IMG/VR virus record: IMGVR_UViG_3300030617_000044
Location: 1-27,417 of that record
Strand: one strand, 5' to 3'
DNA: 27,417 nt
DNA from: a virus
The notes under the pieces: generated by a model
Told to the model about the DNA's origin: nothing
Database searches by the model: none
Seen by the model: the letters and a program-made list of their open reading frames with translations, nothing else
Program-made: the position numbers and the translations under genes
Part shown: positions 1,265 through 26,050 of the stretch, one piece after another
How positions within the stretch are numbered: the stretch's first letter is position 1
Layout of the letters: each line of letters begins with the position of its first letter

Positions 1265-1300
1265 AAAACCGCCTTTACAATGCGTAGGGGCGGCTTTTTA
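1265..1300 (+). terminator. Weak rho-independent terminator or attenuator after the lipoprotein gene
   Basis: CCGCC (1269-1273) pairs with GGCGG (1289-1293), followed by CTTTTTACTTTTT. The loop contains the ATG at 1280. Confidence 0.35.
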
Positions 1301-2530
1301 CTTTTTGCGTCACTAAACGAGTCACTAAAAGATACCTTTTCACTGGTGAAACCCGAAGATTTACCCTTTAAACCGCCCTATAAACCGGCGCGGCTTGTTA
1401 ATGAGGATAAGCCCCTCTCTGAACGGTGGTATATCGTTTTTTGGGTGTGGGATGCTGCCCAAAAACAATTAATCCGGCGCCGGGATTATAAAGTAAACAA
1501 ATTCGACAGCGTTAAGGAACGTAAGAAATACGCCGCAACAGAGATCAAAGGGCTTAATGAGCTTTTAAAAGCCGGTTACCATGTAAATGCCAAGGTTAAG
1601 GCAGCGCAAGCCAAAAAGCCTACTATCATGATCCGAAAGGATTTTACGGTTAAGCAGGCCTTTGATTTTGTGCTTACGCTGGTAAAGGCCACCAAACGAC
1701 CGGCCACTTACAACACCTATTCCTCATGCAGTAATTTGTTTACCACCTGGTTTGAATATTGCTACGCCAAATCGCTTAAAATTAGTTTCCTGCACAAATC
1801 GCATATCGTGGAATACCTCGACTTTGTCCAGGTTGACCGTACCTTAAACAACCGGTCGCGTAACGGATACCTGGGGCATATTAAAACCTTGCTGGGTTTA
1901 ATGGTTGAGCGGGATATCATACCGCATAATCCTGCGGTGGGCATCAGGGAAGAACCAGAAGATATTGGCGGCAATACCGCTTACTTGCCTGAGCAGGTAG
2001 CCACGCTTAAAACCGCCATTACCGAAGAAAATTACCGGCTGTGGCTATTTATCCAGTTTATATTTTACGGCTTTATCAGGCCGGGAGAGATCGGCCGCAT
2101 ACGGATTAAATTTGTCAACCTGGAATCGGGCAAAATATTCCTGCCGGGTAATATCACTAAAAACAGGAAACCACGGCATGTGCAGCTGTCACCGGCGTTT
2201 AAAAAATATATTTTGGAGATGAATTTGGGCGCTTATGATCCGGAACATTTTGTATTCGGGCATAACCTGGTTACCGGGCCTATGCAGCTGCAAAAGAATT
2301 ATGCCAGCGCACTACATACTAAAATTGCCCGCAAGCTTAAGTTTGGGCTTGAATACACCCTTTACTCGTGGAAACATACCGGTGTAATTATGCATTACCT
2401 TGCCGGTATCGATATTAAAACGCTGCAAAACCAATTGGGGCATTGGTCGCTACAGGAAACAGATACTTACCTCAAATCGTTAGGGGTATTCGATAATCAG
2501 GAATTTGAATTGAAAAGCCCATCGATCTAG
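1280..2530 (+). CDS. int: Tyrosine recombinase (phage integrase)
   Basis: 416-aa ORF with an arm-binding-like N-terminus (RWYIVFWVWD). The catalytic-domain landmarks are GFIRPGEIGRIR, YSWKHTGVIMHY and LGHWSLQETDTYL (His plus nucleophile Tyr). The start is uncertain: ATG 1280 sits inside the hairpin loop, and GTG 1346 is an alternative. Confidence 0.85.
   Translation: MRRGGFLLFASLNESLKDTFSLVKPEDLPFKPPYKPARLVNEDKPLSERWYIVFWVWDAAQKQLIRRRDYKVNKFDSVKERKKYAATEIKGLNELLKAGYHVNAKVKAAQAKKPTIMIRKDFTVKQAFDFVLTLVKATKRPATYNTYSSCSNLFTTWFEYCYAKSLKISFLHKSHIVEYLDFVQVDRTLNNRSRNGYLGHIKTLLGLMVERDIIPHNPAVGIREEPEDIGGNTAYLPEQVATLKTAITEENYRLWLFIQFIFYGFIRPGEIGRIRIKFVNLESGKIFLPGNITKNRKPRHVQLSPAFKKYILEMNLGAYDPEHFVFGHNLVTGPMQLQKNYASALHTKIARKLKFGLEYTLYSWKHTGVIMHYLAGIDIKTLQNQLGHWSLQETDTYLKSLGVFDNQEFELKSPSI
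1306..1318. repeat. 13-bp direct repeat TGCGTCACTAAAC, copy 2, followed by partial copy GTCACTAAA at 1321-1329
   Basis: Exact match to 1147-1159. It lies at the annotated 5' end of the integrase ORF. Confidence 0.85.
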
Positions 2531-3224: not shown

Positions 3225-3875
3225 TTAGGCGGTAATATTGGCTAAGGCGTTCAACTCTTCCTGCGTGCCCATCCACTGGTCTAAATCCATATTACCGCCT
3301 GTAGTTGCACCATTTAACTGACCATATTCGCTGTATTGCCAAATCTTATAAGCCCATCCCGGTATAAAAGGCGGCGGCGTTGGTTGGTATGAGGCTACCC
3401 AAAATATAGCATCGGGCCAGGTGTGGCAGATCACGTTTTTAATAAAATCATCATTTGAATAGATAATAATATCCTTACGGCCATAACGCGGATCGGCATA
3501 TAAAGCGGCTATGAAATTATTTACCCGTTGGATGCATAATGCCCGGTTATTGATTACGAATGTTTCTTCAGCGCTGCCGGAATCGGCTTCAAGGTCCAAC
3601 ATTAACGGTCCTGTGCTCCGCTCGGTATAACACACCCCTCTGCTTAAAACATTTTCAACTTGAAGTTCGCCATCGGCTTCCCAATCAAAAAAGTGATAAT
3701 CAATCACGATCACGGTAGGATATAGTCTTTTCAGCTCGTGATAAAATATTTGAAAATCCGGGTCCTGGAAGGAAGCGCCCTGCGTTCCTTTTATAGCAAC
3801 GATTGATATATCGGCGGGCAGGTTGTTAAGTACCTCAAGGCCGTTATTGTGTGAAAGATCGATTACTCTGATCAT
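3225..3875 (-). CDS. GH25-family muramidase (endolysin)
   Basis: VIDLSHNNG...VAIKGTQGASFQDPDF...IDYHFF matches the GH25 landmarks D-x-S-H, K-(A/G)-T-(E/Q)-G and YHF. It is adjacent to the holin-like genes. Confidence 0.7.
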   Translation of the reverse strand: MIRVIDLSHNNGLEVLNNLPADISIVAIKGTQGASFQDPDFQIFYHELKRLYPTVIVIDYHFFDWEADGELQVENVLSRGVCYTERSTGPLMLDLEADSGSAEETFVINNRALCIQRVNNFIAALYADPRYGRKDIIIYSNDDFIKNVICHTWPDAIFWVASYQPTPPPFIPGWAYKIWQYSEYGQLNGATTGGNMDLDQWMGTQEELNALANITA

Positions 3876-8437: not shown

Positions 8438-8968
8438 TTAACTCAATAAATTGTGTAATACTTTTGATATGGCTGGCTGCTGATAATAGGCCAGGTGATT
8501 TTTATTGATGCTGCGTTCCTGCGCGAACATTTGATTGTCGTATTGTTGCAGGTTATTCTCTTTAATGATCCGCGATAACTTATCGGCATACTGTGCCCTA
8601 TCTCCACCACGGTTAAAGCCGGCCGCTTGTATGGCTTTAGCCTGCGCAAACGGGTTTTTAGCGGTTACCACCCCGGCTGCCAGGTAGATCGGTTTTTTAA
8701 GGATCACTATTTCTGCCGATATCGCATCGCTTATGCTATTATACCAGCGCCAAACGTTTCCATGCGGCGTTGTTTGCCCTTTTTTACCTGTCCAGTTGGC
8801 GTTAGCCATGTGTCCGAAAATGTTATTATACATCTGCGCGATCTTGGAAGTGCCCGAGCCGCTTTCCTGTATGGCCTGAGCAATTACTACCGATGGGAAA
8901 ACACCGGTGTTAATGCAGTTGGCAATAACATCCGGTGCGATCCGCTGGGCAAAGCTTGATGATGGCAT
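8438..8968 (-). CDS. Glucosaminidase-domain (FlgJ/GH73-like) peptidoglycan hydrolase, virion module
   Basis: FPSVVIAQAIQESGSGTSKIAQMYNNIFGH matches the mannosyl-glycoprotein endo-beta-N-acetylglucosaminidase signature. Confidence 0.7.
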   Translation of the reverse strand: MPSSSFAQRIAPDVIANCINTGVFPSVVIAQAIQESGSGTSKIAQMYNNIFGHMANANWTGKKGQTTPHGNVWRWYNSISDAISAEIVILKKPIYLAAGVVTAKNPFAQAKAIQAAGFNRGGDRAQYADKLSRIIKENNLQQYDNQMFAQERSINKNHLAYYQQPAISKVLHNLLS

Positions 8969-9158: not shown

Positions 9159-9674
9159 CTATGATAAGCCATAAACTTTTTTTTTTGGATCTGTTATCGC
9201 TGAAATGATCGATGCTGCAGTCGTACCGGCGCCACTTATTAATATGGCATCATGTGCTCGCCTGGCAACAAGGGCAGCATTCCTACGGCCGTTAGCTTTA
9301 ACATAAAGCATGGCATGTGCTGCCGTTTGTGTTGTATCACCGGTTTTATTCCAGATTTCAATAACTTTTTTGGCATTACCAGGGCCTGCATTAAATCCCA
9401 CATCAAAAATACCGTCGTATACACCCTGTGGAGGGGTTCTGGTATAATATGAATTGATCGTGGAGGCTATAGCGCCTAAATCCTTTTGCTTTATCGCCTC
9501 AGCCTGTGCCTGGGTTAATGTTGCCGTAAGCAAATAGCTTTCGCTTGGCTGTATTTGGTGCCCGTAGCCGATTGATCTTCGCCCTTTGGTATTACCAGGA
9601 GGGTCGAGGTAGGCACGTGGCGCAAAAGCCTCGGTACTGGTTATATAGCTTACTAAACTTGCTGATGGCCCCAT
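9159..9674 (-). CDS. GH24-type phage lysozyme, virion module
   Basis: TSTEAFAPRAYLDPPGNTKGRRSIGYGH matches the E...AY.D..G..TIGYGH lysozyme signature. Confidence 0.7.
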   Translation of the reverse strand: MGPSASLVSYITSTEAFAPRAYLDPPGNTKGRRSIGYGHQIQPSESYLLTATLTQAQAEAIKQKDLGAIASTINSYYTRTPPQGVYDGIFDVGFNAGPGNAKKVIEIWNKTGDTTQTAAHAMLYVKANGRRNAALVARRAHDAILISGAGTTAASIISAITDPKKKVYGLS

Positions 9675-19046: not shown

Positions 19047-19299
19047 GAGCTTATATCAATAGTTTAAATTAATTAGGCGAAATAAAATTTTGCTCAGCTG
19101 GTACCGCATAAATGTGCGTTTACAGCTGTTTTCAATAGTTAATCCAAAGATGATTAAATGAAAACAGGGTGTGAAGCAACCTACTACCGAAATATAATTC
19201 TGTAAATGCCTGCCGTGGCATAGTGCAGCAAAAGTGATAACGAGGTGAAACAACGTTTTTTTGCCATTTTATTGTTTTAAAATAAAATTTGCTTTCGGG

Positions 19300-19518
19300 G
19301 TGTTACACCCGTTACACTGTTACAAAGTGGTTTATGTGGCTAAAAATGAGTTTTTTACGTTGTAACACCAGTTGTAACACCTGTAACAGTTGTGTAACAG
19401 TTGTAACACCTTATTAGCTTGCTGTTACACTTAGTGTTACACGATTTTTTTTTGACTTAATTAGTAGTTAATCAATTATTTACGGTTTTAATTTTTGTTG
19501 TTGTAACAGTTGTATCAC
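19300..19518. repeat. Iteron array (core TGTAACA[C/G] / GTGTTACAC); putative origin of replication
   Basis: GTTACAC/A in plus orientation lies at 19302, 19311, 19319, 19424 and 19436. TGTAACAC/G lies at 19361, 19373, 19382, 19393, 19402 and 19502, with 9-12 bp spacing. Full 9-bp palindromes GTGTTACAC lie at 19300-19308 and 19434-19442. Confidence 0.7.
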
Positions 19519-19568
19519 TTTTTTTATTATAATAATAAATAAATAATATATTGTACAGAATATAATTT
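19443..19568. other. AT-rich tract adjacent to the iterons (candidate DNA-unwinding element)
   Basis: Runs such as TTTTTTTTTGACTTAATTAG and TTTTTTTATTATAATAATAAATAAATAATATATT. Confidence 0.5.
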
Positions 19569-19776
19569 GGCGAACGCTTAAAAATCGTTGGTTACCACCT
19601 CCCCTCATCACAAAATAGGGACATGAGCGGCTAAGCCGGTAGGTCAAACCGGTTCGTGCTCCGCCCGCCCGGTTTGTAAAGAATTAAAGGATTTCGCTAC
19701 GCGAAGGTGTGCCCAGGTCGCTGCCGCTCCCGTGGGCGAAAATGGGGCGAATCAATGCCCGTGCCACGTTTTTATT
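19569..19776 (+). ncRNA. GC-rich, ORF-free structured element; candidate ncRNA or host-derived att fragment. Strand is uncertain.
   Basis: No ORF of at least 60 aa in any frame. Several mutually exclusive helices are possible (see finding). It ends in CCACGTTTTTATTTATG on the plus strand. Confidence 0.3.
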
Positions 19777-19791
19777 TATGAGACAATAAAA

Positions 19792-19817
19792 AGGCCGCTT
19801 AATAATTTAAGCGGCCT
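19792..19817 (-). terminator. Rho-independent terminator ending the early operon
   Basis: AGGCCGCTTAA (19792-19802) pairs with TTAAGCGGCCT (19807-19817) across loop TAAT. On the minus strand it is followed by TTTTTATTG. Confidence 0.85.
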
Positions 19818-19861
19818 GTAGGTAGTGATATCGCATCTAAGTTTTTTGCGATGCTCGAGGT

Positions 19862-20309: not shown

Positions 20310-21038
20310 TCATATCGCACTATTTTGCGAGGCAAGATCTGAAAGTATGGCGTTGCGCAATACTGGTTCGAGCCGGTTAATTTTTTTGATGAGGTTTTTT
20401 CTTATCCGGGCGAATTGTTCACGCTCCCTAAACTCTTCACCTATAAAGCTGTAGTCGTGTAGTTGATCGTTAAGCTGATAGTTCATGTAAATTCGCTCCA
20501 AAGCCCTGCCATTATGTGTATTTGACCAAAAATCGTGTGTGTACCATCCTCTTAAATATTCATCATAAAGTGGGTCTGGGTAGTTGCTGATCATTATTTT
20601 TGTTTGATTTAACGATAAGCAGCTTTCTAAAAGTTCGATGTGCTTTTGTTCGCTCATCTCAAATCGATAAACTGGGCGCTGTGTTTTTCTAACAGCCGTA
20701 CGATAAGTAGGGTCGAGATATAAAAACACATCGGCTGTGTCATAATATTCCGCTATTATAGACCGAATTAAAGTGACTACATCAATATTATAAAACTCAA
20801 AACATTTGCGGGATCCTATCGCATATTTCCACGATGCTACCAGGTCGCTATCAAGGTCGTTCAATATCATTAATTCAGCCGGTTTGATGTACCTGGTTAA
20901 GCCACAATTGCCCAGGCACCCTGAAACATACGTAGTACAGGGCGGCACGTGGTTTATAAGCGTTTGGTAAGTACCAGCGCCGCTTTTGCCACCGAAATAA
21001 GTTGGGTAATCTTTTACTGTGATGGGCGGCTTATTCAT
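20310..21038 (-). CDS. D12-class (Dam-like) N6-adenine DNA methyltransferase, orphan
   Basis: YFGGKSG (compare Y/W-GGK), LINHVPPCTTYVSGCLGNCGL (AdoMet-binding region), MILNDLDSDLVASW (compare NDIN.DL) and LYLDPTY (DPPY-type catalytic motif). Confidence 0.7.
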   Translation of the reverse strand: MNKPPITVKDYPTYFGGKSGAGTYQTLINHVPPCTTYVSGCLGNCGLTRYIKPAELMILNDLDSDLVASWKYAIGSRKCFEFYNIDVVTLIRSIIAEYYDTADVFLYLDPTYRTAVRKTQRPVYRFEMSEQKHIELLESCLSLNQTKIMISNYPDPLYDEYLRGWYTHDFWSNTHNGRALERIYMNYQLNDQLHDYSFIGEEFREREQFARIRKNLIKKINRLEPVLRNAILSDLASQNSAI

Positions 21039-21257: not shown

Positions 21258-23612
21258 TTAAAATGCTTGTTGATCTTCCAAAACCTCATGTACATCCGAT
21301 CGGCTGGCGATAATGGCTTCGTAATCAAAAAATTCGTTAAACTCTTCGCGTAAATCCTCTTCTGTAAAAAAGTTCTCTACCCTAAATTCGTATAAGCGAC
21401 CGTGCTTTTTTAGCATGGTAGGCAAGCCCATGCCCAGGTGATCCGGTTCGACCGGGAACTCGCGGCGCAACATTTTTGATTTCAGGTTAAATTTTTCTTT
21501 CAACTGCTTAAATATGTCGGCATCACGGTATTTTACGGCTGCACCGGGCTTGTTGATCAGCGCTGAAATTTCCTCTAACGTATAAAACAGCGTATGGTAC
21601 TTGTAATGCAAAAACCTGCTTTGCAGTATAACGGTAAGCTCGCTATAGGCCCAGCCTTTGCTATTTTGGCGCACGCGTTTAAGCGCTTCAGTTTCCAGCA
21701 GCATAGGGTCAAACCAGTGGCGGCTCTTGCGTGGGTGCAGTATTTCGCGGTTGCTTAGGTAGTGTAAAAAGGCCGGTACCTCTTCCTGCATCTTTTCGCG
21801 GATCAGCGGGTCATCTTCTTTAAATTTGGGTACTTTGTTTACCCAAAAGCGGTTCTCGAGGTCATCAATAGCGATAAAGTTTTCTTCATCATTGCTACTC
21901 AACCCAAATTTGCCGAAAAATGGAATTTCCTGTTTAGCCTGGTAAAGCCCGCGGTATTTTATTGATGGAGCGGTGCTCATACTCTTTACTTTTTCGAGGG
22001 TTGATTTTTTGTCGATAAAGCCCTCATCAATGCCGATAAACAGTTTCGAGCACCAATCATCATTAAACTGGTCTTTTAAGTCCTCGGGGCTTATAAACGT
22101 GGCATTTTCCTGCCATAAATCCTTTTGAAACCACAGGAATGTACTTTTACCGGTGCCGCGATCGCGGCTAACCAGGCAGGGGATAGGCAGCGGCTGCGTA
22201 GGGTAGCGGTAAATGATGGTGAGGTAATCTAATGCCAGCTCATAATTGGTGTGGCCGCTGGATAATGCCGCCTCGCCGAATATGTGCTTTAAAAACATTT
22301 CGATGGTTGACCAACTGCCCGGCTCTAAAACATGATCAAGCTTGTAATACATGTTATAGCAGCCATTTACTACAGGCTGGTAGGCATCGGTATTGCAGGG
22401 TACATTACAAAACTCATCGTATTTTTCAAGGGTTTCGTAAAAATTTTTAAAGCCGTTGTTAACGTAATCGCGGCTAATTTCGCCACTCTTCCAGCCCTTA
22501 AGCTTGCGGCGCAATACGCCTTTTGCATCAGGAACGTGTATGATTTTGATATAATCACATCCAACCCGGATAAATTTAAAACTGTCCTCGTGGCGCACAA
22601 GTTCAAGGCCTTCGCCCTTGCTGCTTTTTTTGTACCGGGCACCGCTGAAAGTAAATTCCTTTTCGCCGATCAGATTTTCATACCAAAAATAGAATGATGA
22701 TGGCACGCCCTTAACAATGTTGAGCCTGAATATATTTTTTAGCTTAGTTGGTGTTAACGAGGTTAAATTATGGCCGTTAAACCACACCCTAGCGCCTGTT
22801 AAGCGCTGTAAATCGGCAATTACCTTTTGTACGGTATCACCGCCCTTTGCCCTGGCATCGCAAAGCAAATCATCAAGTCCCTTTGTTTCTTCAACATAAT
22901 CATCCTTAATATGCAGAAAATACACATCCTTAACCAGGCTTTTCGCCACCTCGCGAAAACGTACCACGGTATTATAAAAGCTGTACAGGCGCTTGGCTAA
23001 ATCTTTGTTCGGCTCTTCCTCGTGATCCCAGGTAACCAGTTCGACATCCGCATCCAAAAGCAATACCAGGTTAGTTACATCGCATGCGTGAATGATTTTG
23101 ATTAAATCATCGTGCAGGCTCTTTTTATCGCTGTCAAGAAACAAATCTTTACCACCGAGGCCAACGATATCTAATCCCTGCAAAGCGCCTGCAAAGGCTT
23201 TAAATTCGCCCTCAACAACATAAAGGGTTTCAATTTTTGTTTTCGCTGCGAATTTTTCAATTACCTGTTGCGTATGGAAGATGTGTACACCGCTTTTAGG
23301 CTCCTGAAAGTATTTACGGTCGGGTTCGGGTTGGTTATCCGGTTTAAACCTTATGCGCTTAAACTCATTTTCAGTACCGGCAATTAATTCGGCACCCCCG
23401 TAAAGCGATGGATAATGAATTACAATATTACCTGATGCCTCATGCTCTGCAAAAATGGGTTGGTTATATGCTTTAAAAGGATATTCCGGTTCAACCTTAA
23501 AAAAATGGTCGGAGGTGTCAACGATGCCCATCTCGTGCATGCGTTTTTTAAAATAGGTATCGAGCTGTGAAGGATCGATTTGTTCGGTTTTTTTATTCTG
23601 TCGCTTAGCCAT
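21258..23612 (-). CDS. Replicative primase-helicase (Toprim-like N-terminal half plus P4/D5-type SF3 helicase C-terminal half)
   Basis: LYVVEGEFKAFAG and VLLLDADV form a Toprim-like Glu and DxD. The Walker A is SRDRGTGKSTF, with FIGIDEGF as a Walker B-like motif. The 784-aa size is typical. Confidence 0.7.
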   Translation of the reverse strand: MAKRQNKKTEQIDPSQLDTYFKKRMHEMGIVDTSDHFFKVEPEYPFKAYNQPIFAEHEASGNIVIHYPSLYGGAELIAGTENEFKRIRFKPDNQPEPDRKYFQEPKSGVHIFHTQQVIEKFAAKTKIETLYVVEGEFKAFAGALQGLDIVGLGGKDLFLDSDKKSLHDDLIKIIHACDVTNLVLLLDADVELVTWDHEEEPNKDLAKRLYSFYNTVVRFREVAKSLVKDVYFLHIKDDYVEETKGLDDLLCDARAKGGDTVQKVIADLQRLTGARVWFNGHNLTSLTPTKLKNIFRLNIVKGVPSSFYFWYENLIGEKEFTFSGARYKKSSKGEGLELVRHEDSFKFIRVGCDYIKIIHVPDAKGVLRRKLKGWKSGEISRDYVNNGFKNFYETLEKYDEFCNVPCNTDAYQPVVNGCYNMYYKLDHVLEPGSWSTIEMFLKHIFGEAALSSGHTNYELALDYLTIIYRYPTQPLPIPCLVSRDRGTGKSTFLWFQKDLWQENATFISPEDLKDQFNDDWCSKLFIGIDEGFIDKKSTLEKVKSMSTAPSIKYRGLYQAKQEIPFFGKFGLSSNDEENFIAIDDLENRFWVNKVPKFKEDDPLIREKMQEEVPAFLHYLSNREILHPRKSRHWFDPMLLETEALKRVRQNSKGWAYSELTVILQSRFLHYKYHTLFYTLEEISALINKPGAAVKYRDADIFKQLKEKFNLKSKMLRREFPVEPDHLGMGLPTMLKKHGRLYEFRVENFFTEEDLREEFNEFFDYEAIIASRSDVHEVLEDQQAF

Positions 23613-23829
23613 TAATGAGATCGGTAATACTGCACTTAAAAAAGTTTGAAATTTTGATCAGCTCATCACTCGGGATGCTGAAACTATCGCCGGTTTTCAC
23701 GTTCAACCAGTAGTCGATAGTACGCTCGGATTTATCCACCAGGATAGCCAATTCATATTTTTTGTGCTGGTATCGACCGGGCAATTTGCGCAAACGATCC
23801 TCGATGTTGTATTTGGGATTAACACACAT
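23605..23829 (-). CDS. Small XRE-type HTH protein
   Basis: KKYELAILVDKSERTIDYWLN…ELIKISNFFKCSITDLI. Confidence 0.5.
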   Translation of the reverse strand: MCVNPKYNIEDRLRKLPGRYQHKKYELAILVDKSERTIDYWLNVKTGDSFSIPSDELIKISNFFKCSITDLING

Positions 23830-23878: not shown

Positions 23879-24070
23879 TTAATTTAACTTAAAGCAAATA
23901 GTAGAATGATGGTAACCGTTAGCCTCGTGGTGATCCTCAAAATATACGTCGACAGCTTTATCACCAAAAAGAAAGGCGCTTACGCTCTCGGTGTCGGCAA
24001 ATTGTTCGCCCATGGTGTTTACCGCTATTCGGTTTATACCTGGCACCTGTAATTCACTTTGGCTGCTCAT
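23879..24070 (-). CDS. Hypothetical early protein (63 aa)
   Basis: ORF on the operon strand with an ATGA overlap to its upstream neighbour. Confidence 0.35.
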   Translation of the reverse strand: MSSQSELQVPGINRIAVNTMGEQFADTESVSAFLFGDKAVDVYFEDHHEANGYHHSTICFKLN

Positions 24071-24363
24071 TTCTTGTTTTTATTACGGATTGCGAAAAAC
24101 TTGGCGCGGCTTTTATTGCGGGCTACTTTAGCCGCACGGCTTTCGTAAACCTCGCGGGCCATCTCTAAATAAAGTGCCTTTGTTAAGCCTTCGGGTACGG
24201 GTACCAAACCATCTTTAATCTTCATGTAAAAACCTTTGTAATCAGCCAGTCCACACACTTTAATATAGCTATTGAGCGCCTCGATAGTAGTTAGTACCGG
24301 ATTCCCGGTACTAACTTTTTCAGTTTCAACCGCAGGTTGAAAAAATTCGAATGTCATTTGCAT
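24067..24363 (-). CDS. Hypothetical early protein (98 aa, basic C-terminus)
   Basis: ORF on the operon strand with a TAATG overlap to its upstream neighbour. Confidence 0.4.
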   Translation of the reverse strand: MQMTFEFFQPAVETEKVSTGNPVLTTIEALNSYIKVCGLADYKGFYMKIKDGLVPVPEGLTKALYLEMAREVYESRAAKVARNKSRAKFFAIRNKNKK

Positions 24364-25307
24364 TATTTTGCCTCCTTTAAAAGTTCAATTAATTTTGCAG
24401 CCATTGCGATATAGTGCTGTTTGCGAGCATCAGCACGAGCATCAGCATCAGCACGAGCACGAGCATAAGCATCAGCATAAGCATCAGCATCAGCATCAGC
24501 AGCATCAGCACGAGCACGAGCATCAGCACGAGCACGAGCATCAGCAGCACGAGCATCAGCAGCACGAGCATCAGCAGCACGAGCATCAGCAGCACGAGCA
24601 TCAGCAGCACGAGCAGCAGCAGCATAAGCAGCAGCAGCATAAGCAGCAGCAGCATAAGCAGCATCAGCAGCAGCAGCATAAGCATCAGCATAAGCATCAG
24701 CATCAGCATAAGCAGCAGCAGCATAAGCAGCATCAGCAGCAGCATAAGCAGCATCAGCATCATAAGCAGCATAAGCATCATAAGCAGCATAAGCAGCATC
24801 AGCAGCTAACTTTTCCCAAGTTTCGCGGGGAACTGTTGTGGTTAATGAAGTGGTATAAGCGTCTGCCACATCTCGAATAGCCTTGCGGCTATTCTCGGTT
24901 TTTGCAAATTTGATGACACCTGCGGTATCATCAACCAAAAGCCAAATCATGAATTTGCGCCATACATTTTCAAGGTCGACACCTACCGGCACGGCCTCCA
25001 TAAAGTTTAGCGGCCAGTCCTTTGATTCGCCTACCGGTAAGCCCTCAAAAATTCGATCTTCCAGCATGGCAATAATGCGCGGGATGCCTAATTGTGTTAC
25101 ATAACGGCCGTGTATGTCCTTTTTGTCGACATTGCCGGTTTTAAAATCTTCCGGTGTAAACATGGTGCAGGTTACCGCGCAACCTTTTTCGCCATTCCAG
25201 TAGTCACCCTGGATTAAATTGTCTAGTTCTTTGTGGCGCTTTAAATCAGCGATTTTGGCGTCCTTAATTTCTTGCTTTCCGTGGAAGCTTAGTAGTGGTG
25301 TGTTCAT
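24363..25307 (-). CDS. Early protein: about 150-aa globular N-terminal domain followed by about 150 aa of Ala/Asp/Tyr/Arg low-complexity repeats
   Basis: The N-terminal domain (…GDYWNGEKGCAVTCTMF…QLGIPRIIAMLEDRIFEGLP…) has normal composition. The repeats (AADAAYAAY… (ARAAD)x5 …) stay in frame with it and with a normal C-terminal helix, KQHYIAMAAKLIELLKEAK. Confidence 0.6.
   Translation of the reverse strand: MNTPLLSFHGKQEIKDAKIADLKRHKELDNLIQGDYWNGEKGCAVTCTMFTPEDFKTGNVDKKDIHGRYVTQLGIPRIIAMLEDRIFEGLPVGESKDWPLNFMEAVPVGVDLENVWRKFMIWLLVDDTAGVIKFAKTENSRKAIRDVADAYTTSLTTTVPRETWEKLAADAAYAAYDAYAAYDADAAYAAADAAYAAAAYADADAYADAYAAAADAAYAAAAYAAAAYAAAARAADARAADARAADARAADARAADARARADARARADAADADADAYADAYARARADADARADARKQHYIAMAAKLIELLKEAK
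24538..24657. repeat. Two abutting perfect 15-bp tandem arrays: GCATCAGCAGCACGA x5 (24538-24612) and GCAGCAGCAGCATAA x3 (24613-24657), inside a GCN-periodic tract spanning about 24420-24806
   Basis: Counted directly. All copies are exact. Confidence 0.9.
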
Positions 25308-25420: not shown

Positions 25421-25593
25421 ATCTCAATCTCATTTTTTCCGCTCTCTCGCAGCTCCCTAAGCTTTTCTTGAAACATATAAATTGCGGCGTTGGGGTTAGG
25501 GTCAACATACCCGGGATAGTATTTTTTACTCAGTAACATGATGTGATCTTCTATCTCGCTTTTAGTCCAGGTTTCGGTTTGTTTTTCAGGCAT
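25417..25593 (-). CDS. Hypothetical early protein (58 aa)
   Basis: The track gives 25417..25644. The ATG at 25593 overlaps the upstream stop (ATGCCTGA). Confidence 0.4.
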   Translation of the reverse strand: MPEKQTETWTKSEIEDHIMLLSKKYYPGYVDPNPNAAIYMFQEKLRELRESGKNEIEI

Positions 25594-26050
25594 TGTTTTG
25601 GGTATTAAAAAGGTTATTAGATTGTTCAGGTTTTGGCGGTTCAATAGGTGCTAGCTTAGGCATATTAGGCCAGTGCTCGCAATGGGTACCGTACAATTCA
25701 ACCGGAAACTCCGGTATTTTCATTTCGCAATGATCAATCAGGATAAAAGATAAATCCTGCGTTTGCCAGTTGATGTTTTTGTTTTTATACATCCGCATAA
25801 ACATGCCCTTGCATTCAGGTAACGAAAGGCCGGTATCTAACCGGGCGATGTATTCGGTAAGCTGCGATAGCTTGTAATGCTTAATGTCAATGATGATACC
25901 GGGGCCTATGCAGCTATCCTTTAAGCCAAGCATATACCAGTAACCAACCTTGTAAAAGTTATCGTTACGCAGCCTTATGGTGGTTAGGTTACGGCAAAAT
26001 AGTTTACCGTTCCAGTTGTGTGAAAAGTCGATTGAGCCGCCGTAATTCAT
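25586..26050 (-). CDS. ASCH/DUF3850-like (PUA-fold) protein candidate
   Basis: …NLTTIRLRNDNFYKVGYWYML… loosely resembles the (E/T)IR.ND..F.VGD motif of ASCH-like domains. This call rests on weak similarity. Confidence 0.3.
   Translation of the reverse strand: MNYGGSIDFSHNWNGKLFCRNLTTIRLRNDNFYKVGYWYMLGLKDSCIGPGIIIDIKHYKLSQLTEYIARLDTGLSLPECKGMFMRMYKNKNINWQTQDLSFILIDHCEMKIPEFPVELYGTHCEHWPNMPKLAPIEPPKPEQSNNLFNTQNNA

Follow-up and report, generated by a model that had tools for sequence, protein, structure and literature searches.

The 27,417-nt window analysed here (positions 1 to 27,417 of IMG/VR virus record IMGVR_UViG_3300030617_000044) carries a gene in which an ordinary-looking protein runs into 127 codons for only four amino acids. 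The locus raises the questions of whether such a gene is real, how its repeat array came about, and what the array does for the phage. We found that the target is a genuine gene with a real reading frame, belonging to a complete ~27.4-kb temperate phage whose host is probably a Mucilaginibacter-like Bacteroidota. The best explanation of the whole, to which we give a probability of about 0.6, is a real gene with an array shaped by slippage and selection that acts as a helical stalk or spacer. The features on which the argument rests are:

24363..25307, minus strand: target gene, 314 codons plus stop, complete
24813..25307, minus strand: N-terminal all-alpha domain, aa 1-165 (conservation and AF2)
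24426..24806, minus strand: coding repeat array, aa 168-294, 127 codons (Tandem Repeats Finder and codon count)
24613..24657, minus strand: three exact tandem 15-bp units, AAAAY x3
24538..24612, minus strand: five exact tandem 15-bp units, ARAAD x5
24366..24425, minus strand: conserved C-terminal segment RKQHYIAMAAKLIELLKEAK, aa 295-314 (AF2 pLDDT 96-98)
24067..24363, minus strand: 98-aa gene directly downstream of the target gene
21258..23612, minus strand: 784-aa DUF5906/primase-like replication protein, which marks the surrounding early/replication module

The 5' end of the target gene overlaps a 38-aa upstream gene. At the other end its stop codon shares bases (TAATG) with the start codon of the 98-aa downstream gene, which is probably translationally coupled to it. 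This downstream gene was kept with the target only in the closest relatives and was not a family-wide partner. The window had no nucleotide match among cultured phages, and scanning it for Rfam families and tRNAs gave no hits.

The sequence bore out an earlier note's description of exact 15-bp tandem arrays, five copies and then three, abutting and in frame. On the plus strand, GCATCAGCAGCACGA occurs as five exact tandem copies at 24538-24612 (ARAAD on the coding strand), and GCAGCAGCAGCATAA as three exact copies at 24613-24657 that abut the GCATCAGCAGCACGA block. The coding strand of the GCAGCAGCAGCATAA unit reads as four GCT codons and one TAT (AAAAY), and two more dispersed copies start at 24667 and 24712. 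The array encodes 78 Ala, 23 Asp, 14 Tyr, and 12 Arg using only GCT, GAT, TAT, and CGT; Glu and Lys are absent. Its halves are also as first described, the first rich in Asp and Tyr and the second alternating Arg and Asp. Because GCT makes up 22% of the Ala codons and CGT 14% of the Arg codons in the rest of the window, the probability that all 127 codons keep to a single choice for each amino acid is ~1e-67. The GC content of the array is 53% versus 43% for the whole window. With 18% Asp and 9% Arg, its net charge is about -11 over 127 residues, and some relatives had roughly neutral arrays, which leaves the proposal of a polyanionic surface weak. The chosen frame is the one in which, as in homologous proteins, the N-domain and the C-terminal helix, both conserved, are joined. 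The other open frames over the repeat (His/Gln-rich, Ser/Ile-rich, and Leu/Met-rich) were rejected as by-products of composition.

The exact 314-aa protein was recovered on at least 21 contigs and in 51 index data blocks from ENA and JGI assemblies, and the 945-bp gene was identical in independent ENA (k141) and JGI assemblies. Among 22 contigs with the downstream gene, the 314-aa gene adjoined it in 19, and the remaining three, one of them a Logan assembly, ended inside the array with the retained part equal to the window sequence. The array is no assembly artefact, since the same protein stands in at least 19 independently assembled contigs of ~27.4 kb. Length variation between isolates, which the earlier note considered probable, was not borne out: the 19-21 complete assemblies of this phage all had an identical array, an invariance established by look-up on exact protein identity, which would miss variants. 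The comparison of related contigs for repeat-number polymorphism likewise gave none for this phage, with identical arrays throughout, and searching IMG/VR with the exact flanking DNA turned up no variant of the phage. With no polymorphism in this phage's population, array turnover is not fast here on ecological time scales.

The design of the protein proved to be widespread. An exhaustive profile search gave 4,292 representatives at E<=1e-3 (1,098 at E<=1e-30), so that the family comprises 4,292 clusters of phage and prophage proteins at 50% identity; a word-indexed search gave 633 matches, and members were present on 401 IMG/VR contigs. Prophages or MAG contigs carrying the gene came from at least ten phyla, the closest being Mucilaginibacter (68-71% identity). 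The family follows a fixed three-part plan, in which an Ala-rich array that varies between members stands between a ~165-aa N-domain and a C-terminal helix that is conserved. The architecture noted at this one locus, a folded N-domain with an Ala-rich repeat and a short terminal helix, is therefore common to thousands of unannotated homologues, and the family is unnamed. The recurrence of the same design in thousands of unannotated phage proteins marks the array as a selected feature. Pfam, NCBIfam, and PADLOC gave no match for the target or for 32 family N-domains. Literature searches gave no description of the motif or family, nor is it treated in PMC10392669, an article about repeat proteins that are hypervariable.

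A distant relative was found in phrog_3416, which matched 9/32 family N-domains (best E 6e-7). The full-length window protein matched it at E 0.0048 over residues 113-236, and the window N-domain alone gave no match at the PHROG threshold. Distant protein matches among cultured phages were confined to 13 Xanthomonas phage records. One of these Kantovirinae proteins, NEB7 WHB31219.1, has the same three-part plan with an array of the form (SAA[E/Q/R/W])n, and its gene sits between primase and helicase genes. The phrog_3416 and Kantovirinae proteins share only 27-31% identity with the window N-domain, and all are annotated as hypothetical proteins. The position of the target in an early operon held up as well, with the gene lying within early/replication modules of phages and prophages. 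The search for homologues and neighbourhoods thus yielded a very large family and no conserved partner gene: in ORF clustering within 4 kb across 112 loci, the best cluster occurred in only six.

The N-terminal domain was present as the earlier note proposed, and its length was ~165 aa, not 150. In the family alignment H25, C43, and C47 were invariant, H66 was nearly so, and E70, D84, and E88 were also conserved; the domain carries the motifs KGCAV(G/T)C and LGIPRI.A.LEDRIFEGL. Judged from this conservation, H25, C43, C47, and H66 form a possible Zn site; the domain may be Zn-stabilised, and the LGIPR segment may be helix-turn-helix-like. Structure prediction gave a confident, compact, all-alpha AF2 model (pLDDT 91, pTM 0.83), and no relative in the PDB by structure comparison (best E 2.7). 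The full-length model fared similarly against the PDB (best E 0.83, all long-helix noise), sequence profiles had no PDB match, and BFVD gave a single match to the N-domain model, the uncharacterised phage protein A0A6J5QCR4. At the other end, the family shares the motif R-x3-[YRF]-x2-[QM]-[AS]-[DE]-K-L-[IL]-E-L-L-x-x-A, usually sited ~4 residues before the C-terminus; of the sequences that match it, 97% have the K and 100% the first L. The helix that it forms (KL[IL]ELL) is amphipathic and conserved family-wide.

Bacterial SSB likewise has a folded OB domain, a variable Gly/Pro/Gln-rich disordered linker, and a conserved acidic C-terminal tip. The target family is SSB-like in its conserved N-domain, variable linker, conserved C-terminal motif, and DNA-replication context. 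It differs in that its linker is Ala-rich and helix-prone, its C-terminus is an amphipathic helix, and its N-domain is all-alpha.

The codons of the arrays tell how they arose. Over 66 arrays of relatives, the majority third codon base had a median share of 98.3%, and entropy at codon positions 1/2/3 was 0.76/0.95/0.27 bits, against ~1.9 bits at each position in the N-domain. The closest relative had 89% nucleotide identity in the N-domain and 39 third-position differences in 166 N-domain codons, and its array was re-patterned and 57 codons shorter (70 vs 127). Zero third-position variants occurred in the arrays of the window and this relative (127 and 70 codons). The inference of slippage made from the window therefore gained support, from codon homogeneity across the family and from the shorter, re-patterned array of the closest relative. 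Another lineage showed strong array variation between near-identical gene copies: tandem paralogues with 0/429 and 0/45 flank differences had different arrays, and adjacent paralogues with 4/429 flank differences had arrays that could not be aligned. Such paralogue sets were seen in just 6/112 loci. Arrays turn over far faster than their flanks.

Composition was held while sequence changed. Ala made up 69% of the 40 T-type arrays, in which 39% of the remaining residues were Asp and 37% were Tyr, and the 23 C-type arrays, whose codon set is disjoint from that of the T-type, were 71% Ala with Asp and Tyr each 36% of non-Ala; across both types Asp and Tyr each made up ~11-12% of residues. Although two mutations separate Tyr from Ala, Tyr was far more common than Ser, Thr, Val, and Gly, each of which is one step away. 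G-ending and mixed arrays used Trp, Glu, and Arg, and the Xanthomonas-phage and actinobacterial arrays had as much Arg as Glu or Asp. Most family arrays were net acidic (Asp/Glu ~10%, Arg/Lys ~1% inside arrays), with basic residues mainly at both array edges. The polarity of this phage, with Tyr first and Asp/Arg later, was not a family trait, as composition was flat along arrays. Arrays ranged from ~10 to >200 residues, and some members had degenerate or very short ones; an array was kept in nearly all of ~240 sequences inspected from many phyla. The 92 singleton codons in 80 arrays fell 34/31/35% at codon positions 1, 2, and 3, and this equal spread indicates that mutation was not targeted.

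Comparison across the family indicates that arrays grow by unit slippage and that selection amplifies aromatic and charged codons. Such an array starts as a homogeneous Ala-codon tract whose length rises and falls through replication slippage or unequal recombination, in units of 3 to 21 bp across the family that are unconserved between relatives (15 bp in this phage). All copies descend from a few founder codons, which accounts for the uniform third codon base. Point mutations enter the three codon positions equally, and only units with aromatic and charged codons are amplified (Tyr and Asp, with Arg here; Trp, Glu, and Arg in the G-ending arrays), so that selection on the protein holds Ala at ~70% and acidic residues about level with aromatic ones. 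Reviews (PMC3523016 and PMC11285758) describe the expansion of low-complexity regions by replication slippage, and PMC6821194 reports their persistence in prokaryotes and phages. Like slippage repeats, the array in the window has exact units, codon homogeneity, and pattern differences between close relatives. Slippage-generated low-complexity regions and coding microsatellites likewise have exact in-frame units with one codon per amino acid, differ in length from one relative to the next, and interrupt assemblies. Unlike in coding microsatellites, thousands of members of this one family have arrived independently, by way of different codon sets, at a defined composition of three or four residues. 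Unlike bacterial contingency loci, the array is no homopolymer and no on/off frameshift switch, as its units are multiples of 3 bp.

The claim that the repeat forms one very long single helix stood for one part of the protein only. AF2 predicted a confident helix at residues 222-312, which covers the Arg/Asp half and the C-terminal motif, and gave pLDDT <50 for the Asp/Tyr half (residues 184-221); given this very low confidence, the Asp/Tyr half could be disordered. Asp-to-Tyr and Tyr-to-Asp pairs were 1.2-1.5-fold enriched at i+3, i+4, and i+7, statistics that are inflated by repeated units within arrays. Tyr-to-Tyr pairs were enriched at i+3, i+7, and i+10, and neighbouring Asp/Tyr pairs (i+1) were strongly avoided. 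This spacing appears to match the i+3/i+4/i+7 rhythm of an alpha-helix. Spacings of two residues (ADADAD, YAYAYA, ARARAD) were as common as those of three, so the pattern is not that of a simple amphipathic helix, to which the purely alternating arrays of some relatives (L050) are also a poor fit. The averaged periodicity spectrum had no sharp helical period, only a broad peak at 3.3-4 residues; the pair-spacing test is the more informative of the two.

Two kinds of Ala-based helix invite comparison. One kind is salt-bridged, as in engineered rigid linkers of the form A(EAAAK)n and in ER/K single alpha-helix domains, the latter being rich in Glu, Lys, and Arg, with opposite charges from i to i+4, and stable as monomers. 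The (ARAAD)x5 block is ER/K-like in placing opposite charges three residues apart (Arg to the next Asp) on Ala, with AF2 predicting one helix. Unlike ER/K domains, only the (ARAAD)5/ARARAD part alternates charge, Glu and Lys are absent here, and family arrays are mostly Asp/Tyr-dominated and without basic residues (~1%). Alacoil-type antiparallel helix pairs and type I antifreeze helices are also Ala-rich, and the array would resemble them as a long Ala-rich helix with non-Ala residues on one face at i+3/i+4/i+7. It differs from them in its irregular pattern, with period-2 segments common.

No homology ties the family to any role, and the host-takeover or anti-defence role that the earlier note considered plausible found no backing in a PADLOC match, a conserved neighbour, or a structural relative. 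Our best guess at function is a stalk or spacer, helical in form, of which one face evolves fast. The array would fold largely as alpha-helix, with Asp and Tyr lined up on one face and an all-Ala face left for close helix packing. It may form a stalk or spacer of variable length that separates the N-domain from a C-terminal docking or oligomerisation helix, and present a rapidly changing Tyr/Asp/Arg surface to a binding partner in early infection. The near-neutral split of singletons implies that individual residues are weakly constrained, which fits a spacer better than a precise binding surface.

The leading alternative, which we regard as unlikely though worth keeping in view, makes the array the active part of the protein: a helical display of binding hot-spot residues (Tyr, Trp, Arg, Asp), diversified by slippage in an arms race, that would bind and neutralise a host factor prone to vary, such as a defence protein. 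Its constant scaffold would consist of the N-domain and the C-terminal helix, and the phage would gain by changing arrays or carrying several. In one lineage at least two paralogues do stand in tandem, their scaffolds identical and their arrays different, and the array is completely re-patterned at 89% flank identity. Only non-synonymous variants become amplified, and composition converges on aromatic and charged residues across codon classes. The gene is also a single one in the early region without a conserved partner, as is typical of anti-defence genes. Against these points, PADLOC gave no match to defence or anti-defence models, singleton substitutions look neutral and not positively selected, and the array was invariant in the 19-21 complete assemblies of this phage. 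Sequences with ~70% Ala and simple periodic patterns would make a poor specific interface, and the paralogue sets are limited to the six loci.

A particular form of this idea, for which we hold a lower expectation, is display with a minimal alphabet, in which a constant scaffold and an Ala helix would carry Tyr/Asp or Trp/Arg/Glu ladders rewritten by slippage against variable host targets such as defence proteins; the paralogue sets would be repertoires, with no dedicated diversification enzyme. Synthetic four-amino-acid code libraries draw Tyr, Ala, Asp, and Ser from the degenerate codon KMT. The arrays are similar to these libraries and to the variable regions of diversity-generating retroelements (DGRs) in that the first two positions of their codons vary and the third is always a pyrimidine, which allows no stop; GCT, GAT, TAT, and TCT together make up the KMT set. 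Unlike in DGRs, array diversity comes from unit duplication and selection, with no reverse transcriptase among the window's larger ORFs, no template repeat in the window, and no positional bias of mutation.

It is also doubtful that the array is a tolerated junk linker. On that view a tract prone to expand, whether selfish or neutral, would sit in a permissive loop between two functional modules, and its composition would reflect only what a soluble linker tolerates. The wide range of lengths, the degenerate or very short arrays of some members, the unconstrained singleton mutations, and the low AF2 confidence over half of the array all accord with such a tract. They are opposed by the retention of the array across many phyla and by the arrival of two disjoint codon systems at the same 70% Ala and ~11-12% each of Asp and Tyr. 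Tyr and Trp, both two steps from Ala, moreover outnumber Ser, Thr, and Gly, which are one step away and equally soluble, and the spacing is biased towards i+3/i+4/i+7.

We consider it very unlikely that the array is a DNA mimic, with Asp standing for the phosphate backbone and Tyr for the bases, that plugs restriction enzymes or RecBCD. Ocr, ArdA, and lambda Gam are mimics that plug host DNA-binding enzymes, and an acidic and aromatic ladder, a net acidic charge in most arrays, and a place in early phage regions would suit such a protein. The charge density is low (the net -11 over 127 residues given above), the Arg content of Xanthomonas-phage and actinobacterial arrays equals that of Glu or Asp, and Pfam and Foldseek gave no sequence or fold similarity to known mimics.

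There is little to favour a repeat that acts as nucleic acid with coding secondary, whether as an origin or iterons in an initiator gene, a structured RNA, or a DGR-type variable region in which mutagenesis is aimed at codon positions 1-2. Array variation is confined to codon positions 1-2 and leaves the third base unchanged (an NNY or NNG lattice), replication genes are found next to the gene, and the order of domain, repeat-encoded linker, and C-terminal module resembles that of lambda O, an initiator whose gene has the origin inside it. Singletons, on the other hand, hit the three codon positions equally, and it is amino-acid composition that is conserved and not DNA sequence. DGR or other targeted mutagenesis was rejected, as the window's larger ORFs held no reverse transcriptase in PHROG and Pfam scans, the window held no second, template-like array copy, and there was no codon-position bias. 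Array RNA folded no better than shuffles (z = -0.41), which disposed of a functional RNA structure. An origin inside the gene was discarded because the array exceeds the genome in GC content and lacks an AT-rich unwinding element, and a lambda-O-like initiator with internal iterons of about 15-20 bp because array units are unconserved between relatives; a better origin candidate lies at 19300-19560, with >10 TGTAACA heptamers and an AT tract. Least credible of all is a repeat collapsed or expanded in assembly or an error of frame, for although some assemblies break inside the array, ~15/80 IMG/VR contigs end at or in their own array, and a few database copies are frameshifted in or near it (P0009, L106, L009/L091), the 945-bp gene recurs unchanged in independent assemblies (21 contigs read, 51 index blocks) and its frame runs unbroken into the C-terminal motif conserved family-wide.

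For annotators, the three-part plan gives a handle on a family of >4,000 clusters without a name, domain model, or structural relative. There is a practical side as well, as the arrays break short-read assemblies and give rise to false ORFs that overlap and to gene calls with frameshifts. As a natural case of slippage and selection keeping composition constant while sequence churns, the arrays are unusually clean. If they were specificity determinants, they would generate hypervariability by simple means and without an enzyme; they would be nature's counterpart of the minimal Tyr/Ala/Asp/Ser binding libraries and a third route to programmed hypervariability of phage proteins beside DGRs and cassette recombination.

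The target gene encodes a 314-aa protein in which an N-terminal domain is followed by an Ala-rich repeat array and a C-terminal helix that carries the KLIELL tail motif. All 127 codons of the array were GCT, GAT, TAT, or CGT. The exact, abutting, in-frame repeats described in the earlier note held up within this reading frame:

24363-25307, minus strand: target ORF, 314 aa
24426-24806, minus strand: repeat array, aa 168-294 (78 Ala, 23 Asp, 14 Tyr, 12 Arg)
24538-24612: five exact tandem copies of GCATCAGCAGCACGA (plus-strand sequence), coding ARAAD x5
24613-24657: three copies of GCAGCAGCAGCATAA (plus-strand sequence) abutting the GCATCAGCAGCACGA block, coding AAAAY x3

Two more copies were dispersed. 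Outside the array, GCT made up 22% of Ala codons and CGT 14% of Arg codons in the rest of the window, so a single codon per amino acid across 127 codons has P ~1e-67. Other open frames across the array arise automatically from the NNT codon lattice; in NNT arrays a stop codon is impossible in the +1 frame.

The contigs carrying genes of this family often ended at array-bearing genes, and a few database copies were frameshifted in or near the array. For the target, assembly artifact is excluded because the identical gene recurred across contigs and the broken copies matched the window wherever sequence was retained. The identical 314-aa protein was found on at least 21 contigs of ~27.4 kb from ENA and JGI assemblies, including the window's own contig (the index lists 51 data blocks for the exact protein). 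Among 22 contigs that were read and carry the downstream gene, 19 had the identical gene; the remaining ones, two plus a Logan assembly, broke inside the array. No array polymorphism was detectable in the sampled population of the target's phage, and the length variation between isolates anticipated earlier was thus not seen for this phage.

A search with the N-terminal 176 aa returned 633 proteins; each was annotated as hypothetical and lacked any Pfam domain. A profile built from 32 N-domains matched 4,292 representatives (50%-identity clusters) at E ≤ 1e-3 and 1,098 at E ≤ 1e-30. Relatives were encoded on 401 IMG/VR viral contigs. The closest relatives in reference genomes were in Mucilaginibacter prophages (68-71% identity). 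Contigs with distant relatives were assigned to Acidobacteriota, Alphaproteobacteria, Actinomycetota, Chloroflexota, Myxococcota, Planctomycetota, Patescibacteria, and others. Among cultured phages, relatives were limited to 13 Xanthomonas phage records (27-31% identity), in which the family gene sits between the primase and helicase genes. Pfam, NCBIfam, and PADLOC searches gave no match to the family, phrog_3416 (function unassigned) was a distant relative, and no description of the family or its motif was found in the searchable literature. Every member inspected had the same three-part plan:

N-domain: all-alpha, ~150-170 aa, with invariant H25, C43, C47, G74, D84, and F87, and nearly invariant H66, E70, and E88
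Ala-rich array: median ~41 aa, range ~10 to >200 aa
C-terminal motif: R-x3-[YRF]-x2-[QM]-[AS]-[DE]-K-L-[IL]-E-L-L-x-x-A, with K present in 97% of the sequences that match and the first L in 100%

Some copies departed in detail. Protein P0121 (600 aa) consists of two complete units fused head-to-tail, each with an N-domain, a degenerate Ala/Thr/Ser array, and an LLALLAAAP tail, and P0150 (357 aa) has an extra Cys-rich C-terminal extension beyond the tail motif. In P0009, L106 79-, and L009/L091 (the last two being one contig), frame shifts fell in or just ahead of the array, such that one frame held a stop-free Leu/Met-rich run and another the true array and KLIELL tail. Either sequencing error at the repeat or natural frameshift variation could account for these copies.

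Third-base uniformity extended across the family. Across 66 homologous arrays with 20 codons or more, a median of 98.3% of codons ended in the array's majority base. That base was T for 34 arrays, C for 28, A for three, and G for one; the choice of T or C tracked genomic GC only loosely. Array entropy was 0.76, 0.95, and 0.27 bits at codon positions 1, 2, and 3, compared with ~1.9 bits at each position in the adjoining N-domains. Exceptions to the uniform third base were still short periodic DNA units, e.g. 6-bp (Y/S)-A and 9-bp AA(E/G/W). The closest relative (L084) had N-domain DNA 89% identical to that of the window, with 39 of 54 differences at third codon positions, whereas its array of 70 codons (vs 127) used the same four codons with zero third-position variants, was re-patterned in the interior, and could be aligned at the edges only.

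We took codons occurring once per array and one step from an abundant codon as likely recent point mutations. Mutational input is unbiased by this measure, because the 92 such singletons in 80 arrays were split 34/31/35% over codon positions 1/2/3. The same split ruled out targeted mutagenesis, which the inverse third-position pattern of N-domains and arrays could suggest. With mutation even over all codon positions, the uniform third base is therefore a mark of descent by duplication. Arrays grow from a few founder codons and are rebuilt repeatedly by slippage or unequal exchange in units of 3-21 bp, with rebuilding outpacing the accumulation of point substitutions. We consider this evolutionary mechanism well supported. 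Neither a reverse transcriptase nor a second array copy was present in the window, and shuffled sequence folded as well as the array RNA did (z = -0.41). An element acting at the DNA or RNA level is largely excluded, and so is a DGR.

One lineage (L024/L098, L099, L100, L102, and L103) carried at least two paralogs per genome, tandem or nearby in L024 (29-688 and 1864-2496), L103 (88-687 and 698-1378), L099, and L100. N-domain DNA differed at 0-7 of 429 positions and the tails at 0-10 of 45, yet the arrays differed altogether, in length (35-66 codons) as well as pattern. Two adjacent paralogs with four differences in 429 flanking positions had unalignable arrays, built from ~12 different NNT codons, the third base being T in 94-100% of cases. 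Judged from these sequences, array turnover may outpace change in the flanks by orders of magnitude; another possibility is that gene conversion homogenizes the flanks or that they serve as recombination handles for array swaps. Contigs tended to end at these paralogs, and true copy number may exceed that observed.

T-type arrays (40 arrays, 2,948 residues) were 69% Ala, with Asp (39%) and Tyr (37%) leading the non-Ala residues. C-type arrays (23 arrays, 1,329 residues) were 71% Ala, with Asp and Tyr each at 36% of the non-Ala residues, from a wholly distinct codon set (GCC, GAC, TAC). Tyr, two mutational steps from Ala, far exceeded the one-step residues Ser, Thr, Val, Gly, and Pro (each ≤8% of non-Ala). 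G-ending arrays, in which Tyr and Asp are not encodable, used Trp, Glu, and Arg instead, as in Xanthomonas phage NEB7 (SAA[E/Q/R/W])n and actinobacterial ([AD]A[WR])n. Since disjoint codon systems reach like compositions, an Ala or Ser background studded with aromatic and charged residues is a convergent outcome. Third-position variants arose as often as others and were seldom amplified, whereas Asp, Tyr, and Arg units were amplified, which points to protein-level selection on array composition rather than drift.

AlphaFold2 modeled the N-domain with pLDDT 91 and pTM 0.83. Foldseek found no PDB relative of this model (best E 2.7) and a single BFVD match, the uncharacterized phage protein A0A6J5QCR4. 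In the full-length model, residues 222-312 (the Arg/Asp half and C-terminal motif) formed a single confident helix, and the Asp/Tyr half (residues 184-221) had pLDDT <50. Across 90 Asp/Tyr arrays, Asp-to-Tyr and Tyr-to-Asp pairs were enriched 1.2-1.5-fold at separations 3, 4, and 7 (z = 2-4.4, with counts not independent since units recur within arrays) and Tyr-to-Tyr pairs at 3, 7, and 10. Separations 1, 5, and 9 were mostly depleted, as was 2 for Asp-to-Tyr and Tyr-to-Tyr. Such spacing is characteristic of an alpha-helix whose non-Ala residues share one face, with the caveats that period-2 segments (ADADAD, ARARAD, YAYAYA) were common and the averaged periodicity spectrum was broad. The Tyr-first, Arg-later polarity of the target was not family-wide and, edges excluded, only ~1% of array residues were Arg or Lys, so the (ARAAD)5 block is a lineage-specific expansion. 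A subfamily (L030, L044, L048, L059, L072, L108, and L116) had arrays of 3-residue units, A-[D/Y]-[L/R] (ADLADRAYLAYRADL...), and its tail motif was a variant, (E)ILLEVLAAS. A Leu-containing period of three residues does not fit easily with a simple amphipathic helix.

The window, one full contig (JGI 3300030746 Ga0302312_10000539), is essentially an entire small temperate phage, with endolysin-like genes and one tail-spike-like gene. Features by position:

1280-2530, plus strand: integrase
3225-3875, 8438-8968, and 9159-9674: three separate ORFs matching endolysin PHROGs
19301-19520: more than 10 copies of the heptamer TGTAACA/TGTTACA, in both orientations
19519-19560: pure AT tract directly after the heptamer cluster
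19590-19820: GC-rich stretch of ~170 bp
19792-19817: perfect 11-bp terminator-like hairpin (AGGCCGCTTAA/TTAAGCGGCCT) at the end of the GC-rich stretch
20310-21038: DNA methyltransferase
21258-23612: 784-aa DUF5906 primase-like protein
23605-23829: Cro/CI-type HTH protein
25586-26050, minus strand: 154-aa early protein, weakly matching the ASCH domain (E 0.0076, short of the Pfam cut-off)

The genome was assembled repeatedly at ~27.4 kb (1-27417 in the window; 27,431, 27,382, and 27,067 bp in L086, L131, and L132), which makes a complete genome, circular or terminally redundant, probable; shorter versions open or break exactly within the Ala array. Upstream of the primase gene runs a close-packed minus-strand row of small genes that includes the target. 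The target overlaps a neighbor at both its start and its stop, and the ASCH-like ORF lies two small genes upstream of it. Three endolysin-matching ORFs are more than expected for a 27-kb phage, and some may be tail-associated lysins. The non-coding gap at 19047-19861 holds the heptamers, AT tract, and GC-rich stretch. Its 19300-19560 portion resembles clustered iterons beside an unwinding element, which would make it a candidate origin of replication, or else a densely packed operator region. The GC-rich stretch is a possible small RNA; Rfam and tRNA scans gave no match there.

Genes near family members were of early or replication-module type (ERF, DnaB, ParB, primase, Dam, HTH regulators). 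None was a conserved neighbor, the best cluster occurring at 6 of 112 loci, so the protein seems to act alone. Most likely, the N-domain and C-terminal amphipathic helix would be constant functional modules joined by the array as a selected, mostly helical, length-variable stalk or spacer, whose Asp/Tyr (or Trp/Arg/Glu) face would change rapidly; the structural role is suggested by AlphaFold2 and the pair spacing. First among the rivals is an arms-race reading in which the array would be a true repertoire of specificities, favored by the paralog sets. We rank second a merely tolerated linker and third a DNA mimic, and prefer the stalk or spacer to all three. Slippage-built low-complexity regions are already a known kind. 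Unusual here are how large a family has gone unnamed, how strictly the lattice keeps one codon per residue, how disjoint codon systems converge on a single composition of three residues, and the sets of paralogs that share a scaffold and differ in their arrays.
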